From Chloroflexota bacterium (GTDB lineage: Bacteria; Chloroflexota; Chloroflexia; Chloroflexales; Herpetosiphonaceae), in assembly GCA_020161265.1 (NCBI GenBank), contig JAIUOC010000003.1, positions 1-43,023 on the forward strand: a stretch of 43,023 nucleotides of DNA. Reading direction: 5' to 3'. Shown here piece after piece: positions 18,601 to 31,310 of this stretch; position 1 is the stretch's first letter; each line of letters begins with the position of its first letter. The position numbers were made by a program, and so were the translations under genes. The notes below the pieces were generated by a model. That model was given only the letters and a program-made list of their open reading frames with translations. It ran no database searches and was not told where the DNA came from.

Positions 18601-18800
18601 AGAGAAGCGTAGAACGCAAGGACGAATGAAAAGTCAAAAGGCAGAAGTCAAAAGGCAAAAGAACATAGAGCAAAGGATGAAGGATGAAAATAAAAGCCAA
18701 AGGCAAAAGATTGTGCTGGCTTAACCGCGAAGAACACGAAGAGCACTAAACTTATAGGATAAAAAGCCTTTGTGTGCTTCGTGTTCTTCGTGGTTAAAAT
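18601..18800. repeat. Composite repeat element: GTCAAAAGGCA x2, GAACATAG, GGATGAAGGATGAA and a CACGAAG-based 24-bp imperfect palindrome
   Basis: aaccgcgaagaacacgaagagcac (18723-18746) pairs with gtgtgcttcgtgttcttcgtggtt (18771-18794). On the minus strand the hairpin is followed by T-rich sequence, so it probably doubles as the panC terminator. Confidence 0.5.
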
Positions 18801-18829
18801 CTGCGTGGGTTCTTTCCTCGATCTCCAAG

Positions 18830-19660
18830 TTACATCACTAAATTATCAATTAAACGGGTTTTGCCGATGCGCACTGCTAGCGATACCAACGCGCCCTGCT
18901 GATCGATCGTGGTTAGTTCTTGTAAACTGCGTGGATCGGCGATGCTAACATAATCGATTTGGGCTAGTGGCTCTTGGGCCAGCGTTTCCAACATCAATTG
19001 GCGAATAGCCTCAGCATCGGTTTGGCCTGCGACATAGGCGGTTTGAGCGGCTGTTAACGCTCGATATAGCACTGGAGCGGCTGCGCGTTGCTCAGCATTC
19101 AGGTAACTATTGCGGCTACTCATCGCCAAACCATCGGCCTCACGAATCGTCGGGGCGATGACTACTTCTACAGGCATGGCTAAATCGCGCACAAATTGGC
19201 GAATTACCACGGTTTGTTGGGCATCTTTTTGGCCAAAATAGGCTTTGGTTGGCTGAACGACATTAAATAGTTTGGTCACAACCGTGGCTACGCCGCGAAA
19301 ATGGCCTGGTCGGCGAGCACCCTCAAGCGGAGCTGTCACCCCTTCGACTTCAACATAACTGCTAAATCCCGCTGGATAAATTTCCTCAACGCTGGGCATC
19401 CAGACCAAATCACAACCAGCCGCTTCCAACAACGCGAGGTCGCGCGGCGTATCTCGTGGATAGCTGGCAAAATCTTCGTTGGGGCCAAACTGGGTGGGAT
19501 TGACAAAAATCGAGGCGATGGACACCCCGTTTTCGGCTTTGGCTTGTTGGACTAAGCTCAAATGCCCAGCATGTAAAAAGCCCATGGTTGGTACAAAACC
19601 AACCTCAGCCCACTGGCGACGCGCCGCCCGAACTTCTTCGATCGTTGTTACAACTTGCAT
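18830..19660 (-). CDS. panC: Pantoate--beta-alanine ligase
   Basis: TMGFLHAGHLSLV (HIGH-like), FGQKDAQQ and SSRNSYL motifs. ATG 19660 has GAGGAA 6 nt upstream. The track ORF is extended 12 codons at the 5' end. Confidence 0.9.
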   Translation of the reverse strand: MQVVTTIEEVRAARRQWAEVGFVPTMGFLHAGHLSLVQQAKAENGVSIASIFVNPTQFGPNEDFASYPRDTPRDLALLEAAGCDLVWMPSVEEIYPAGFSSYVEVEGVTAPLEGARRPGHFRGVATVVTKLFNVVQPTKAYFGQKDAQQTVVIRQFVRDLAMPVEVVIAPTIREADGLAMSSRNSYLNAEQRAAAPVLYRALTAAQTAYVAGQTDAEAIRQLMLETLAQEPLAQIDYVSIADPRSLQELTTIDQQGALVSLAVRIGKTRLIDNLVM

Positions 19661-19699
19661 GTTCAGTTCCTCATCCACAAAAACGCTTGCTAACAAATA

Positions 19700-20300
19700 T
19701 CTTAATTCAATCTAGCTGAAAGCGCCAAATTGCCGATTTTGTAACGGGAATTTTTAATTTATACCAAATTATGCCTAACATGTTGATGATATCAAATAGC
19801 TTTTTTTGATTGAAACTTACTGAATTGTCGCTATCGGTATGCTATAGATCTGGATATTTTATTAAAAAAATCTAAAAAATTAAGTTGCGTTAATTATTTA
19901 ACTATGTTAGCATCATGTATATATGAACAAATTTGCATGAATATAGAAGTATTCCAATGATTGTAATAAGTTTCTATTGATGCAATTTGTTAAAGCATGA
20001 ATTGATAAAAATGATTATTTCAAGCCTAGTCAGAATTTATTAAGCCTCATTCTTGGTTAAATTAACCTAAGCTTGACTCGAATTTTGATTGAATTAATCA
20101 TTCGATTGTCTAAATTTATTCATGCTGGTACTGACTTAGAAACGATGGATTGAACATTATTTCTAAGATTTAGTTCGATTTGTACTGAATAATTTATCTC
20201 GTCATTTCATTATTCCTGCTATTCAGTGCTCTCTTTTTTTAGGCATGATTTTTAATGATTGTTAAGAATTTGCCGATTAGTTTAATTGTTGTGCTGCGCC
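19700..20300. other. AT-rich (roughly 30 % GC by eye) non-coding island between divergent panC and the pectate lyase gene
   Basis: No ORF of 60 aa or more on either strand. Only 5-18-codon ATG...stop reading frames occur, and A/T tracts are abundant. The rest of the window is about 52 % GC. Confidence 0.6.
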
Positions 20301-20390
20301 ACAGCGTTGCAACGTGGTCGCTGGGGAATCGAAACATAGCTGGATGTGAGTTGTAATTGGGAGCGGTCTCAAAACCTGTCAAGCATTGTA

Positions 20391-20590
20391 GGGGTCAGGG
20401 GCTAGGATTCAGGGGTCAGTAAGTGTAGAACATAGGGATATGGCTATGGGCGCTAGGCGATCGGAATATGCTTTGAGTTTGCATAAGTTATCGATCCTGT
20501 GGACAAAAGCTTATAGTCAATTTTTCTTCGCGATCTTCGTGTGCTTCGTGGTTGCAATCATCCTGACCCCTGATCCCTGACGGCTGATCC
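20391..20590. repeat. About 200-bp imperfect palindromic repeat element immediately upstream of the pectate lyase gene
   Basis: Left arm ggggtcaggggctaggattcaggggtcag (20391-20419), then gaacatag, ggctatggg and cttcgcgatcttcgtgtgcttcgtgg modules. Right arm cctgacccctgatccctgacggctgatcc (20562-20590). Confidence 0.55.
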
Positions 20591-28712: not shown

Positions 28713-28807
28713 ATTAAAATCCCGATCCCCAGTCCCCAACAGCCGATCCCCAATTTGTTACAATACCCGTTGTCCAGTGCCAAATTTCGACTACAAGGAA
28801 CTAAATT

Positions 28808-29236
28808 ATGTCGCTTGCCTTGAATGTGCTCAACCAAAGCCAGCCAAGTTGTGCTGGTTGTGGTGGTTTATGTTGCCGCTCGTTTGTCTTGCCAATTGAT
28901 ACCCCCGAAACCCGTGAGGATTTTGATGTGTTGCGCTGGTTGGTGCTACATCGTGGGGTCAAATGCTTAGTCAAGCAATCAATCTGGGAATTGGAAATTG
29001 CCCTGCCATGTGAACATTTGCAGGAAGATAGCCGCTGTGGGATTTATATGCAGCGCCCGAATGTTTGTGTTGAGTATGAAGTCGCAACCTGTGAGCGCCA
29101 TCAGCCACCGCATTTCGAGGCCGTAATCGATAACGAACATGCTTTGCGGGCTTGGGTTTTCTCGCGCTACGGCATGTATCCCGATGACCCTGATTTTCCC
29201 TATGGCGAGCAAACGATTCGGGTTGGTTTGTTTTAA
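28808..29236 (+). CDS. YkgJ-family putative Zn/Fe-S-binding protein (CxxCxxCC, UPF0153)
   Basis: SCAGCGGLCC motif near the N-terminus plus additional Cys. A candidate TGnTACAAT extended -10 lies at 28755-28764. Confidence 0.55.
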   Translation: MSLALNVLNQSQPSCAGCGGLCCRSFVLPIDTPETREDFDVLRWLVLHRGVKCLVKQSIWELEIALPCEHLQEDSRCGIYMQRPNVCVEYEVATCERHQPPHFEAVIDNEHALRAWVFSRYGMYPDDPDFPYGEQTIRVGLF

Positions 29237-29290
29237 GCGCGATCATCGGTATCATGTGCCCAGCGAACGTCTAGTGATAAGGAACGATCA

Positions 29291-30898
29291 ATGTCGATCA
29301 TTCAGAGTACGCTCGATATCCATAGCCCTGAATTTCGCCAAAATGTTGATTTTCATCGCCAATTAGCTGCCGAACTGCGCCAACAGACCCAACAAATTGC
29401 CCAAGGTGGTAGCGTTGAAGCACGTGCCCGCCACGAACGCCGTGGCAAATTACTGGTGCGCGATCGGATCGAGCGTTTGCTTGATCCTGGCAGTGCTTGG
29501 CTCGAAATTGGCACATTAGCCGCATGGCAAGTCTATGAAGATGATGTGCCAGCAGCAGGTGTAATCACCGGAATTGGGCGGGTGTCGGGAGTTGAAGTGC
29601 TGATCGTTGCCAACGATGCCACGGTCAAGGGCGGCACGTACTATCCATTAACTGTCAAAAAACATTTGCGTGCTCAAGAAATCGCCTTGCAAAACCATTT
29701 ACCTTGTATTTACTTGGTCGATAGCGGTGGCGCATTCTTGCCTTTGCAGGCCGAGGTTTTCCCCGATCGCGAACATTTTGGGCGAATTTTCTACAATCAA
29801 GCCCAAATGTCGGCTTTGGGCATTCCGCAAATCGCCGTGGTGATGGGCAGTTGTACCGCTGGTGGAGCCTATGTGCCCGCCATGAGCGACGAAGTGGTGA
29901 TTGTGCGTGAACAAGGCACGATCTTTTTGGGTGGCCCGCCTTTGGTCAAAGCCGCCACTGGCGAGATTGTGAGCGCCGAGGATTTAGGCGGCGCTGATGT
30001 GCACACCCGCTTATCTGGTGTCGCCGACCATTTTGCCGATAACGATGAGCATGCGTTGGCAATCACGCGCTCGATTGTAGCCAATTTGCAGCGGCGCAAA
30101 GCCAACCCATGGCCGTTGCGCACGCCCGAAGCGCCACGCTACGATCCTCAAGAATTGTATGGCATTATTCCCGCCGATACGCGCAAGCAATTCGATGTAC
30201 GCGAAATTATCGCCCGCATCGTCGATGGCTCACGGTTGGATGAATTCAAGGCCCGCTATGGCACAACCTTGGTGACGGGCTTTTCCCACATTTATGGCCA
30301 TCCAGTGGGCATTTTGGCCAACAACGGCATTTTATTTTCCGAGAGTGCCCTCAAGGCGGCGCACTTTATTGAGCTTTGTAACGAACGCGCCATTCCACTG
30401 CTATTTTTGCAAAATATTACGGGCTTTATGGTTGGCCGCGAATACGAGCAACGCGGAATTGCCAAAGACGGAGCCAAAATGGTGATGGCGGTTTCCAATG
30501 CGCGTGTGCCAAAATTTACTGTGGTGATTGGCGGCTCGTTTGGCGCTGGCAATTACGGTATGTGTGGTCGAGCCTATAGCCCGCGCCAACTCTGGATGTG
30601 GCCTAACAGCCGAATCTCGGTGATGGGCGGTTCGCAAGCGGCCAATGTGCTGCTGACCGTGCGCCGCGATGGTCTGCAAGCCAAAGGCCAAGACATGAAT
30701 TTGGCCGAGCAACAAGCCTTTATGCAGCCAATTCTCGATAAATACGAGGCTGAGGGCAACCCCTATTATTCCAGTGCTCGCCTGTGGGATGATGGGATTC
30801 TTGATCCGCTTGATACACGCATGGCCTTGGCACTGGGTTTATCGGCAGCCGCCAACGCGCCATTAGCTGATGTTAAATATGGTGTGTTTCGCATGTAA
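29291..30898 (+). CDS. Acyl-CoA carboxylase carboxyltransferase subunit (methylcrotonyl-/propionyl-CoA carboxylase beta-like)
   Basis: 535 aa with two crotonase-fold carboxyltransferase halves ([27 protein letters not shown]; [16 protein letters not shown]). Confidence 0.85.
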
Positions 30899-30942
30899 TG
30901 CGCCGAGCTGCCCCCTTGATTCATGGATCGAGGGGGCAATTT

Positions 30943-31310
30943 GATCCACGAAGGACACGAAGCGCACGAAGGGTTGAAACCACGAAGATTTATTTTAGCC
31001 ACGAATTCCACGAATTACACCAATAATCGTTATTTTAGCCACAGATTGGCACAGATTGCGCAGATTATGTTCCTGATAGCCAATAGCCGCATGATCTCTG
31101 CACCGCTGCGTTAAACAATTAATCCACGAAGAACATGAAGCGCACGAAGGGTTGAAACCACGAAGAACGCGAAGATCGCGAAGAATTATTTTTTAGCCAC
31201 GAATTGCCCCAATAATATTCCGATAGCCCTCAGCCCATCGCCCCATCGTTCATACCGATTTTGCCTTCTGCTTTCTGATTCCCCTTATGTTCTATGTTCT
31301 ATGCTCTATG
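30943..31310. repeat. Large intergenic repeat array: two direct ~85-bp units rich in CACGAAG 7-mers, plus CACAGATTG x3, GATAGCC and TTATGTTCTATG modules
   Basis: gatccacgaaggacacgaagcgcacgaagggttgaaaccacgaaga (30943-30988) and aatccacgaagaacatgaagcgcacgaagggttgaaaccacgaaga (31121-31166) differ at 3 of 46 positions. Both are followed by ttattttagccacgaatt...ccaataat. Confidence 0.6.

Follow-up and report, generated by a model that had tools for sequence, protein, structure and literature searches.

Why do the spaces between genes in a Herpetosiphon genome carry the same few short words, strung together in varying order and number and in places mirrored downstream? The question is raised by a 43,023-nucleotide stretch of a metagenome-assembled genome (MAG) of a Chloroflexota bacterium (GCA_020161265.1, contig JAIUOC010000003.1), here called the window, in which a first-pass annotation had described a family of modular, palindrome-forming intergenic elements built from iterated 7-9-mers. 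It is near-certain that these arrays form a dispersed, genus-wide family of intergenic repeats resembling the short tandemly repeated repetitive (STRR) sequences of cyanobacteria. As to what they do, the explanation favoured here, held tentatively and drawn by analogy, is that they may be transcribed spacer stem-loops with an RNA-level role, remodelled by slippage and recombination and acting like repetitive extragenic palindromic (REP) sequences and bacterial interspersed mosaic elements (BIMEs). Tandem heptanucleotide repeats in bacterial intergenic DNA were first noted in 1990, and genome-wide counts of them date from 2007.

The window belongs to a Herpetosiphon MAG; a cyanobacterial origin, which the style of the repeats would suggest, is rejected on the identity of the proteins. 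Its carboxyltransferase protein is identical to MCA0351791.1 of the Chloroflexota bacterium MAG and clusters at ≥90% identity with proteins of H. aurantiacus, H. geysericola, H. giganteus, H. gulosus, H. llansteffanensis and Herpetosiphon sp. NSE202. Crude calling of the longest open reading frames (ORFs) gave 32 genes and 14% intergenic DNA. Among the genes are nusG-rplK-rplA, rpoN, panC, two hybrid histidine kinases, a pectin-degradation cluster (pectate lyase, rhamnogalacturonan (RG) lyase and GH3), a redoxin/DsbD pair, the carboxyltransferase, an RluD-methyltransferase fusion and a Ser/Thr kinase. Tandem arrays were called with Tandem Repeats Finder (TRF), and unit counts and folding z-scores were judged against dinucleotide shuffles. 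The Herpetosiphon set consisted of the orthologous 21.6-kb regions of six other genomes and three unlinked 8-kb loci (L092, L127 and L194; sources H. aurantiacus, NSE202 and H. giganteus), and the array statistics for the genus cover 197 kb in ten loci, 15% of it intergenic (85% coding).

Tandem arrays and hairpins at eight intergenic loci

The eight loci of the first-pass annotation were all recovered with their units in place, and are as follows (I numbers denote inverted repeats, A numbers alignments).

1970..2105 (+): hairpin element between rplK (L11) and rplA (L1); arms of GGATGAA-type units (3.9 copies, 1970-1996) and, after a loop, of TTCATCC (3.9 copies, 2079-2105), called by TRF; I4, I8; z = -2.5.
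7270..7339 (+): hairpin between convergent genes, GGCTATGGGC (7270-7279) with GCCCATAGCC (7311-7320), then ATTATTCCTCTGCGCTTCT (7321-7339); z = -3.3.
18601..18797 (-): spacer between panC and a response-regulator-GAF histidine kinase; on the + strand it contains GTCAAAAGGCA twice (18629-18661), GAACATAG (18661), GGATGAA twice (18673-18688) and a nonamer hairpin with arms 18721-18749 (AACCGCGAAGAACACGAAG) and 18769-18797 (CTTCGTGTTCTTCGTGGTTAA), I2, 86% complementarity; z = -4.2 for the whole spacer and -8.4 for the nonamer hairpin.
20385..20597 (+): nested hairpin directly 5' of the pectate lyase Shine-Dalgarno (SD) site; outer arms of GGGGTCA-type heptamers (20385-20419, 20563-20597), interior with GAACATAG (20428), a GGCTATGG...CGGAATAT module (20442-20470) and (CTTCGYGnn)x3 GGTT (20526-20553); I1, TRF; z = -3.5.
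22050..22232 (+): nested hairpin taking up the whole pectate lyase-RG lyase spacer from stop codon to SD site; 5' arm of GGGATCA/GGGGCTA/GGATTCA heptamers (22054-22089) and (GAACATA)x4.4 (22087-22117), two 3' arms (22159-22181, 22201-22231); I3 (96%), I5 (91%), I7, TRF; minimum free energy -83 kcal/mol, z = -6.7.
27006..27158 (+): composite element at the 3' end of the GH3 gene; GAACATAG/AGAGCAT array (27006-27034) with the GH3 stop codon (27026-27028) inside it, CACGAAG (27050), (GGCTATA)x4.3 (27062-27094), a loop, an ATAGCC arm (27117-27139) and ATAATACCTCTGCGCTTCT (27140-27158); I10, TRF, A2; z = -3.9.
28612..28752 (+): second direct copy of the GH3-end composite, 3' of a DsbD_2-like gene; GAACATAG array (28616-28630), CACGAAGAGAGAATAGGCTAT (28642-28662), (GGCTATC) array (28657-28679), arm at 28695-28710 and GATCCCC-type units; I25 (94%), TRF, A2; z = -3.7.
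30940..31314 (+): non-palindromic array region from the carboxyltransferase gene (past its own terminator hairpin) to the RluD/methyltransferase gene; composite copies A (30940-31075) and B (31118-31235), each ATCCACGAAGnnCACGAAGnnCACGAAG-GGTTGAAACCACGAAG...TTTTAGCCACGAATT (A1), a (CACAGATTn)x2.8 array (31040-31066), and pyrimidine-form arrays TTTTGCCTTCTGC... and (CTATGYT)x4 at 31250-31314, reaching into the start codon; z = +0.45.

TRF called arrays of period 7, 9 and 14 across these loci, with period-7 arrays of 2.3-4.7 copies at seven of the eight; 7270-7339 is a GGCTATG-type hairpin with no tandem array. The seven longest intergenic inverted repeats (I1-I5, I7 and I8) all fall within the eight loci, to which I10 and I25 also belong, while I6 is coding. 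Together the loci make up ~24% of the intergenic DNA (about 1.47 of 6.1 kb), in agreement with the sizeable intergenic share that had been attributed to them. Most of the proposed units are strongly overrepresented: CACGAAG occurs 18 times where 4.1 are expected (14 intergenic), GAACATAG 8 times for 0.9 expected (7 intergenic) and GGGATCAGGGG 4 times for 0.02 expected (4/4 intergenic). GGATGAA as a bare 7-mer is not enriched in the window (9 vs 6.1 expected), and it is its tandem intergenic copies that stand out. The 19-mer ATAATACCTCTGCGCTTCT, proposed as a further recurring unit, has a single exact occurrence and a variant at 7321-7339, and represents a further nonamer type (CTCTGCGnn), of which it forms the pyrimidine arm.

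The description of the loci as palindrome-forming holds for seven of the eight, which fold better than shuffled sequences (z = -2.5 to -8.4), but not for 30943-31310 (z = +0.45), where a composite of ~120-135 bp is duplicated in tandem and in direct orientation, its copies starting ~178 bp from each other, and is accompanied by unpaired arrays. Of the seven control spacers without arrays, six gave z-scores of -1.5 to +0.5; the seventh, which holds the RG lyase terminator, gave -3.2. Likewise, units are mirrored downstream in paired arrays, as had been claimed, but across the 197 kb many arrays are unpaired and strand-specific.

The array hairpins were considered as canonical intrinsic terminators and rejected: they have no U-tract, and none was called except two trivial 5-bp stems. 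Terminator-like sites number 18, against 17.8 expected from shuffles, i.e., no excess. Separate terminators, common to most other Herpetosiphon genomes, lie in the same spacers as arrays, and two hairpins outside the family serve as a contrast.

24601..24629 (+): canonical intrinsic terminator GGCCGAGG-AATTT-CCTCGGCC-TTTTT, 3' of the RG lyase gene; recognisable in five of the six other Herpetosiphon genomes, where 0.80-1.0 of it aligns, and partly aligned (0.22) in H. llansteffanensis.
30910..30937 (+): hairpin GCCCCCTTGA...TCGAGGGGGC directly 3' of the carboxyltransferase stop codon; found in four of the six other genomes, missing from H. giganteus and H. llansteffanensis; the arrays begin beyond it.

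Canonical promoters were rejected as well, showing no excess over shuffles and no calls at the arrays.

A genus-wide family with a shared vocabulary and order

Across the 197 kb, period-7 arrays were found 50 times in intergenic and 9 times in coding DNA (59 in total), period-14 arrays 16 and 2 times, and period-9 arrays 31 and 23 times, the coding share of the last being as expected because nine is a multiple of three. Unit families are shared by five to nine of the ten loci, the unlinked L092, L127 and L194 included. GAACATA/AGAGCAT accounts for 17 arrays at nine of the ten loci, CACGAAGnn for more than 25 arrays, GGATGAA for 11 and GGCTATN for 9, with fewer of the GGGGTCA type, AAAAGGC and CACAGATT. 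The connector GGCTATCGGAAYAT recurs together with its loop in both orientations, and the composite junction CACGAAG-RRAGAWTA-GGCTAT occurs twice in the window and also at unlinked loci L402 and L412 of a related metagenome genome; a metagenome scan with this junction gave two true elements among 34 stretches, the rest being mostly unrelated conserved coding sequence. The family must be real, since its units recur at unlinked loci, in six orthologous regions and on two unlinked metagenome contigs. The first-pass annotation had made its interpretation depend on recurrence outside the window and outside genes, and this is what was found, with the units strongly intergenic.

The vocabulary consists of 7-nt units (GAACATA, GGATGAA, GGCTATN, GGGRTCA, AAAAGKC), 9-nt units (CACGAAGnn, CACAGATTn, CGCAGAGnn) and a few unique connectors, arranged in a loose grammar that runs from the stop codon to the next ribosome-binding site. 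The order is I) (GAACATA)n, which may include the stop codon (GH3, 27026-27028); II) ATC(CACGAAGnn)n; III) (GGCTATN)n-CGGAAYAT, a loop and (NATAGCC)n; IV) CTCTGCGCCTCTGCGTTAA; V) (nnCTTCGTG)nGGTTAAA or GGTTTCAATC; VI) (GATCCCC-type)n, (TTCATCC)n or (GCCTTTT/CTTCTGA)n; and VII) (CTATGTT)n. G-rich heptamers are often the outermost arms of the spacers.

The arrays are polar with respect to their genes. In co-directional Herpetosiphon spacers, purine-rich forms lie at a median relative position of 0.23 and their complements at 0.61 (Mann-Whitney p 2e-24, a value inflated because orthologues are not independent). Counts of purine form to complement in the same spacers were 64:12 for GAACATA, 4:22 for GGATGAA and 2:26 for AAAAGGC. 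AAAAGGC switches strand with gene orientation; for the other units the minus-strand genes are too few. The context is also one in which transcription is expected: the element between rplK and rplA lies inside an operon that must be co-transcribed, and others span stop codon to SD site within the co-directional pectin-degradation cluster.

Turnover of sequence and retention of folding at orthologous junctions

In the comparison of orthologous intergenic regions that the first-pass annotation had proposed, all six other Herpetosiphon regions carry arrays, at the same gene junctions in every species compared, and unit type, order and copy number differ. With the closest relative, whose genes share 93% nucleotide identity with those of the window, three of four shared array loci align over only 0.14-0.36 of their length; the fourth, 30943-31310, which holds the conserved composite, aligns over 0.79. 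Non-array spacer DNA aligns over 80-100% in most comparisons, the GH3 leader over 100% in all six other genomes. Folding potential is retained across orthologues despite this turnover of sequence: z-scores in the pectate lyase-RG lyase and GH3 3' slots range from -3.5 to -11.7 in all six or seven species. In the carboxyltransferase-RluD slot, four of seven orthologues are unstructured.

The window and the six orthologous regions make a compact comparative system in which junctions and folding are kept and words, order and number change, a pattern that tells apart selection on the presence of a structure and selection on a given sequence.

Arrays also coincide with the gain or loss of a cassette and with a break in synteny, which bears on genome rearrangement and on mistakes in assembling and annotating spacers rich in repeats. 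The redoxin and DsbD_2-like pair (27249-28606) is found only in the window MAG and H. gulosus, i.e., two of seven genomes, and is bracketed by the direct composite copies GAACATAG...CACGAAGAGAGAATAGGCTAT... (flanks 27006-27130 and 28612-28715), which suggests that the cassette was gained or lost by recombination between arrays. Synteny with the closest relative stops within an array element near 31025 (compare L198:11609-11925), and past the break that genome has Band_7, PfkB and GGDEF genes after the carboxyltransferase in place of RluD-methyltransferase. An array-mediated loss of the pectate lyase and RG lyase genes in H. geysericola was also considered and is unsupported, as the junction carries no arrays.

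A tentative RNA-level role, weighed against protein-binding arrays

The stem-loop explanation runs as follows. Arrays of 7-nt and 9-nt units and their connectors lie between a stop codon and the next ribosome-binding site, purine-rich forms 5' and complements 3', and where both are present the transcribed spacer would fold into long imperfect nested stem-loops. Such intercistronic or 3'-untranslated stem-loops may be barriers to 3'-to-5' decay and insulate adjoining cistrons in part; in enterobacteria, REP/BIME elements act as mRNA decay barriers and partial insulators between cistrons. Replication slippage would change unit copy number, segmental duplication would add copies, and recombination or gene conversion among dispersed copies would reshuffle modules, all of which could run without a transposase of the arrays' own. 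RNA structure would then be the selected feature, stabilisation or insulation its use, and slippage with recombination the generating process. The RNA-level role is favoured because of the rplK-rplA element, the stop-to-SD spans, a polarity that follows transcription, and folding that is conserved without sequence; slippage, duplication and recombination are invoked because of the changes in copy number and order, the tandem duplication and the direct copies that flank a cassette.

Several observations weigh against this explanation. When arms were compared on the sense strand, G.U and A.C mismatches stood at 20:12 (p = 0.22), so that the wobble test is not significant and lends no positive support to selection on the RNA. 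Hairpins are not the whole story, since many arrays are unpaired, and one large locus and four of the seven orthologues of its slot are unstructured. Slippage alone cannot explain identical CACGAAG and GGATGAA units, with identical AAC/GTT ends and arm order, in phages and in genomes of 32-71% G+C from at least ten phyla. Genes in this analysis rest, moreover, on crude longest-ORF calls. Finally, the non-folding carboxyltransferase-RluD composite is conserved in sequence across five species, which points to sequence-specific recognition.

That composite is among the evidence for reading the arrays as sites at the DNA level, bound by a nucleoid-associated protein or global regulator and organising or insulating chromosome domains, a role that has been proposed for sites in Geobacter and seems quite improbable here. 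In Geobacter metallireducens, three classes of sites consist of 3-5 tandem 7-, 8- or 9-mers in opposite-strand pairs at variable distance (Aklujkar 2009, PMC2700814); they occur in dozens of copies, mostly intergenic, in that one genome, and were predicted as binding sites of global regulators, with IHF/HU as the proposed proteins (PMC2700814). In architecture, these class 1-3 sites are the closest to the Herpetosiphon arrays, in which the same pairing is seen in arms 18721-18749/18769-18797, 20385-20419/20563-20597 and 22054-22089/22159-22231. By published consensus, class 2 (TCTCCGTS[Y]) resembles the CTCCGTG/CTTCGTG nonamer and class 3 (MTYCTGA) the Herpetosiphon TTCTGAC (PMC2700814); CTCCGTG variants occur in L142 and TTCTGAC/TTCTGAT arrays in H. 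geysericola. An exact 7-mer followed by a free 2-nt spacer would also suit a recognition site. Polarity, cross-phylum spread, nesting and mosaicism are not reported for the Geobacter sites. Against binding, periods of 7 and 9 bp place successive sites on different faces of the helix. In the wider sample described below, polarity follows stop and start codons rather than promoters (62 vs 7 in viral contigs; 40 vs 7 in genomes, among the matches listed), and arrays are scarce between divergent genes (9, vs 32 between convergent ones).

Nonamer and heptamer arrays in other phyla and in phages

The pattern CTTCGTGNNCTTCGTGGTT was run on viral contigs and on a collection of species-representative genomes; figures derived from the latter hold among the matches listed. 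In viral contigs it gave 116 matches in 76 stretches of 35-70% G+C, with a consensus of three units followed by GGTTaAa. In the genomes, at least 86 of at least 120 stretches have a third unit or an inverted partner. The hosts include Acidobacteriota, Planctomycetota, Verrucomicrobiota/Kiritimatiellia, Desulfobacterota, Bacteroidota, Methylomirabilota, Nitrospinota, Actinomycetota, Alpha-, Beta- and Gammaproteobacteria (Pseudomonadota) and others, at least ten phyla, and within Chloroflexota Herpetosiphon, Anaerolineae, Caldilineaceae, Dehalococcoidia and Chloroflexia. The same architecture recurs throughout: AAC(CACGAAGnn)2-4, a loop of ~10-250 nt, and (nnCTTCGTG)2-4GTT, in which the 7-mer part is exact and the spacer dinucleotide purine-rich (GA, GG, AG or AA). 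AT-rich units persist in genomes of 65-70% G+C, and different unit vocabularies seldom co-occur outside Herpetosiphon.

A permuted nonamer used as a control gave 50 matches, of which 9 had a third unit, mostly in Gly-Ser-Ser coding repeats, and none an inverted partner, with 1 multi-hit locus, compared with 92, 19 and 26 for the 116 real matches; the raw counts of 50 and 116 understate the contrast because the permuted control spells a Gly-Ser-Ser coding repeat. Among heptamers, (TTCATCC)3 was found in 95 viral stretches, ~12 times the permuted control heptamer (8), and many of these, in contigs of 59-70% G+C, form GGATGAA/TTCATCC hairpins that follow stop codons; (GGCTATN)3 gave 29 stretches and (AACATAG)3 gave 7. 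In view of these controls, CACGAAG and GGATGAA arrays are widespread beyond the baseline and GAACATA arrays are not demonstrably so.

The controls bear on whether the arrays are a functionless by-product, that is, microsatellite-like slippage DNA that favours 7-nt periods and is tolerated where genes stay intact. An excess of heptanucleotides among long simple sequence repeats (SSRs) is, as relayed in later papers, general in bacteria and ascribed to slippage (Mrazek 2007, via PMC4679880 and PMC4692102), the arbitrary control heptamer forms as many stretches as (AACATAG)3, and turnover between orthologues is rapid. Such an origin for the arrays as a whole nevertheless has a low probability in the face of the (TTCATCC)3 excess, the third units and inverted partners of the real nonamer (92/116 vs 9/50, and 19 vs 0), the strict arm order, the positioning of arrays at stop codons, the folding retained in orthologous slots and the persistence of AT-rich units at 65-70% G+C.

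Relative to genes, nonamer arrays lie outside or at the edge of ORFs in 117 of 150 cases, in DNA that is 85% coding, and 32 lie between convergent and 9 between divergent genes. A sense-strand stop codon lies within 20 nt of the start of purine-form arrays in 62 vs 7 cases in viral contigs and in 40 vs 7 in genomes. When both arms are present the purine arm comes first, by 19:0 and 34:2 for the nonamer and 19:0 for GGATGAA/TTCATCC, among the matches listed; GGATGAA-array orientation in high-G+C loci was set aside, since spurious long ORFs abound there. About 75-80% of arrays have no inverted partner.

One contig shows this placement in a dense form. The phage-like IMGVR_UViG_3300003358_000002 (45.9 kb; L017+L077+L042+L050+L058+L029) has nearly all its genes on one strand and carries, at gene junctions, 16 sense-oriented TTAAC-CACGAAGnnCACGAAG arrays, all single arms. 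The TAA of TTAAC is the upstream stop codon, and in 7 of the 16 a start codon follows 0-13 nt 3' with no other SD site there. The related nonamers CACAGATTA, CGCGGATTT and CGCTGATTA share its spacers.

A role in translation could account for such positions: purine arms with SD-like GAAGGA cores would hold or re-recruit the terminating ribosome, and the pyrimidine arm would be a competing mimic of the anti-SD sequence. The most widespread units, (CACGAAGGA)n and (GGATGAA)n, both spell GAAGGA, purine arrays start at or within 20 nt of stop codons, and the start codons without another SD site in the phage-like contig agree with it. Its probability is nonetheless slight, for the downstream genes in Herpetosiphon have canonical AAGGAG sites of their own well past the arrays, GAACATA, GGCTATN and CACAGATT have no SD-like core, and arrays also lie between convergent genes.

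Among the matches listed, 34 paired nonamer elements from many phyla range from 37 to 336 bp and cluster at 64-91 bp. Direct-identical 2-8-nt flanks at AAC...GTT, as a target-site duplication would leave, were found in 0-2 of the 34, the level of a shuffled-pair control, and no conserved loop was found among them. An all-against-all BLASTP of 1,383 ORFs at 196 array-bearing loci revealed no recurrent neighbouring protein family; the most repeated neighbours were phage structural genes, ABC transporters, GGDEF proteins and a tyrosine recombinase (6 loci). Array-bearing viral loci also encode portal and terminase proteins. In one Bacteroidales MAG (L111:5250-5900) an 85-bp unit is repeated seven times head-to-tail, each AACCACAAAGT...CACAAAGT-(spacer)-CTTCGTGcaaCTTCGTGccCTTCGTGGTT, so that the nonamer hairpin is itself amplified as a higher-order tandem repeat. 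In a Terriglobia MAG (L101:2330-2560) the nonamer hairpin is centred in a longer unique palindrome (GTGACACGGCAAGTGCATG ... CATGCACTTGCCGTGTCAC), with similar flanks in L151, and looks as though it had arisen at the tip of an older hairpin, either by insertion or by outgrowth.

It may be asked whether the arrays, or at least the nonamer hairpins and the GGCTAT composite, are ends or bodies of tiny non-autonomous elements, similar to REP doublets (REPINs) or MITEs (miniature transposable elements with inverted repeats), copied to new intergenic sites by an enzyme encoded elsewhere and spread between phyla by phages or other vectors. We consider this unlikely, though a rival of some weight. It would fit composite modules with unique connectors at unlinked loci in both orientations, an arm polarity as fixed as that of terminal inverted repeats, the discrete size class, hairpins nested in hairpins, elements in bona fide phage contigs with portal and terminase genes, and identical units over 32-71% G+C and at least ten phyla. 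It is at odds with the lack of target-site duplications and of a conserved loop, the absence of a transposase, RAYT (REP-associated tyrosine transposase) or integrase among the window proteins, neighbours of which the best is a recombinase at 6 of 196 loci, copy number that varies by single units, the large unpaired share, and vocabularies that rarely travel together outside Herpetosiphon.

A narrower proposition is that the nonamer arrays are one cross-phylum family of ~80 bp, [TT]AAC-(CAC[GA][GA]A[GT]nn)2-4 ... (complement)-GTT[AA], with CACGAAG the commonest form, purine-first, placed at stop codons, without target-site duplication and carried by phages. This, too, is on balance doubtful. 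If true, it would imply a shared partner, either a conserved reading factor or ribosomal anti-SD pairing with the GAAGGA cores, or else a minimal, horizontally spreading mobile element, and the Herpetosiphon mosaics would mark a genus where a number of these families have accumulated in shared spacers. CACGAAG nonamer and GGATGAA heptamer arrays, with the same ends, arm order and post-stop position across phyla and phages, may matter more than the Herpetosiphon result.

Relation to known repeat families

The tandem heptamers of cyanobacteria were reportedly described as STRR sequences by Mazel in 1990. Their STRR1-3 units are reportedly CCCCAGT, TTGGTCA and CAACAGT, and none of these matches a window unit; the class is shared, the cyanobacterial families are not. 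As in STRR sequences and long SSRs, the Herpetosiphon arrays consist of tandem 7-nt units in several families per genome, are intergenic and variable between relatives, and occur in filamentous gliding bacteria, where such repeats are common; head-to-tail 7-nt units of at least about three copies were found at many dispersed, mainly non-coding loci. Unlike STRR sequences, 9-nt units are equally prominent in Herpetosiphon, several families follow one another in a recurring order and, mirrored, make up nested hairpins, and the host belongs to Chloroflexota. The small dispersed repeats (SDRs) of Nostoc punctiforme, which Elhai is said to have described in 2008 as unique sequences of 21-27 nt confined to a cyanobacterial subgroup, are reportedly also very small, embedded in tandem heptamer arrays, nested by insertion and able to form hairpins, but they are not arrays.

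The first-pass annotation had likened the loci to REP/BIME-type elements, with units and nesting of an unrecognised kind. REP units are imperfect palindromes of 20-40 nt that carry a conserved tetranucleotide at the 5' end and are linked to a RAYT gene (PMC3116915). The comparison is a fair description of the mosaic, BIME-like architecture: as in the REP, BIME and REPIN elements of enterobacteria and pseudomonads, the elements are intergenic, often just past stop codons, built as mosaics of inverted units and connectors, found at points of rearrangement, able to form mRNA stem-loops that are not canonical terminators, and free of target-site duplications. The nonamer arrays of other phyla are likewise extragenic, near gene 3' ends and scarce between divergent genes. 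Membership in REP, BIME or REPIN families is, however, rejected. Each Herpetosiphon arm is a tandem array with no internal self-complementarity, so that pairing requires a second, inverted array, and no Y1_Tnp, RAYT, integrase or other transposase was found among the 30 window proteins scanned.

As to novelty of the units, tandem heptanucleotide intergenic repeats had already been described, as STRR sequences, long SSRs, the GGGAATC-type repeats of Xanthomonas and Nostoc, TAACTGA of Beggiatoa and the paired sites of Geobacter. The heptamers GGGAATC of Xanthomonas and GGGGA(C/T)T of Nostoc, both G-rich, are intergenic, nearer the 3' end of the upstream gene and partly in inverted pairs (Rehm 2015, PMC4692102); they keep to the same gene junctions while their length and sequence vary between relatives, and quadruplex formation has been reported for both (PMC4692102). 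The Herpetosiphon GGGGATC/AGGGGCT/AGGATTC arrays have a similar flavour. The G-rich heptamers that make up the outer arms at 22054-22089 and 20390-20419 (GGGGATC, AGGGGCT, AGGGATC) offer three or four GGG(G) runs, which would be compatible with the formation of a G-quadruplex. In Herpetosiphon, unlike in Xanthomonas and Nostoc, such heptamers are only the outermost layer of the hairpins, and most other units cannot form quadruplexes. TAACTGA direct repeats occur in marine Beggiatoaceae, cyanobacteria and Bacteroidetes, intergenic and sense-oriented beside start codons (MacGregor 2015, PMC4679880), and are suspected of horizontal spread by a vector that is not known (PMC4679880). As with the present arrays, one exact unit is common to distant phyla, but the TAACTGA repeats are direct only, of a single unit type and without hairpins.

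Other identities were rejected. MITEs share terminal inverted repeats of fixed polarity with the paired arrays (~75-80% of arrays being unpaired), but target-site duplications are absent, and the window contains no parent insertion sequence with matching ends. Integron attC sites have termini RYYYAAC ... GTTRRRY that agree with tTtAAC ... GTTaAa in only 3+3 conserved bases; the elements follow stop codons, lie between housekeeping genes (rplK-rplA, panC, carboxyltransferase) and are mostly single arms, the palindrome being obligatory in attC, and no integrase was found among the window proteins. There is no regular repeat-spacer structure of the CRISPR kind. Rfam searches gave, for the window at E ≤ 1, only a chance snoRNA-like match inside a gene and, for 18 array-bearing loci from at least eight phyla, only a tRNA.

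No description of such repeats in Herpetosiphon or Chloroflexota was found in the literature, nor were the unit strings found in papers. New here are the nested mosaic of several families with its recurring grammar, the comparison of seven genomes, an arm order that is strictly purine-first and the wide distribution of the CACGAAG and GGATGAA arrays.

Other features of the region

A separate MITE-like element of ~190 bp, with ends TGTAATGGTT...AACCATTACA and internal arms CCCTCACCCC.../...GGGGTGAGGG, sits within array hairpins of five other Herpetosiphon species and is absent from the window. In H. gulosus its flanks resemble a CCTAGC duplication. Its positions are:

L198:3941-4307
L201:9099-9517
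L204:2286-2671 and 9182-9517
L205:4005-4382
L206:11609-12090

The pectin-degradation cluster has further features of its own. Between the divergent panC and pectate lyase genes lies an unusually long (~0.7 kb) AT-rich spacer (19697-20380), and three other species have a pectinesterase gene between a spacer of this type and the pectate lyase gene. Upstream of GH3, 24636-24679 contains a promoter-like TTGACA-17-CACAAT followed by the near-palindrome TTGCAAGCGCTTACAG (TGCAAGCGCTTGCA in other species); the region aligns over 100% in all six other genomes, and the near-palindrome looks like a candidate LacI-family operator for the cluster. Pectate lyase and RG lyase have CBM2 domains encoded by 88% identical DNA (20686-21097 and 22317-22723), and their linkers (21035-21141 and 22764-22829) by in-frame repeats of 24 and 30 bp. 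Elsewhere in the window, the Ser/Thr kinase gene contains 2.3 copies of a 78-bp repeat (38118-38296).

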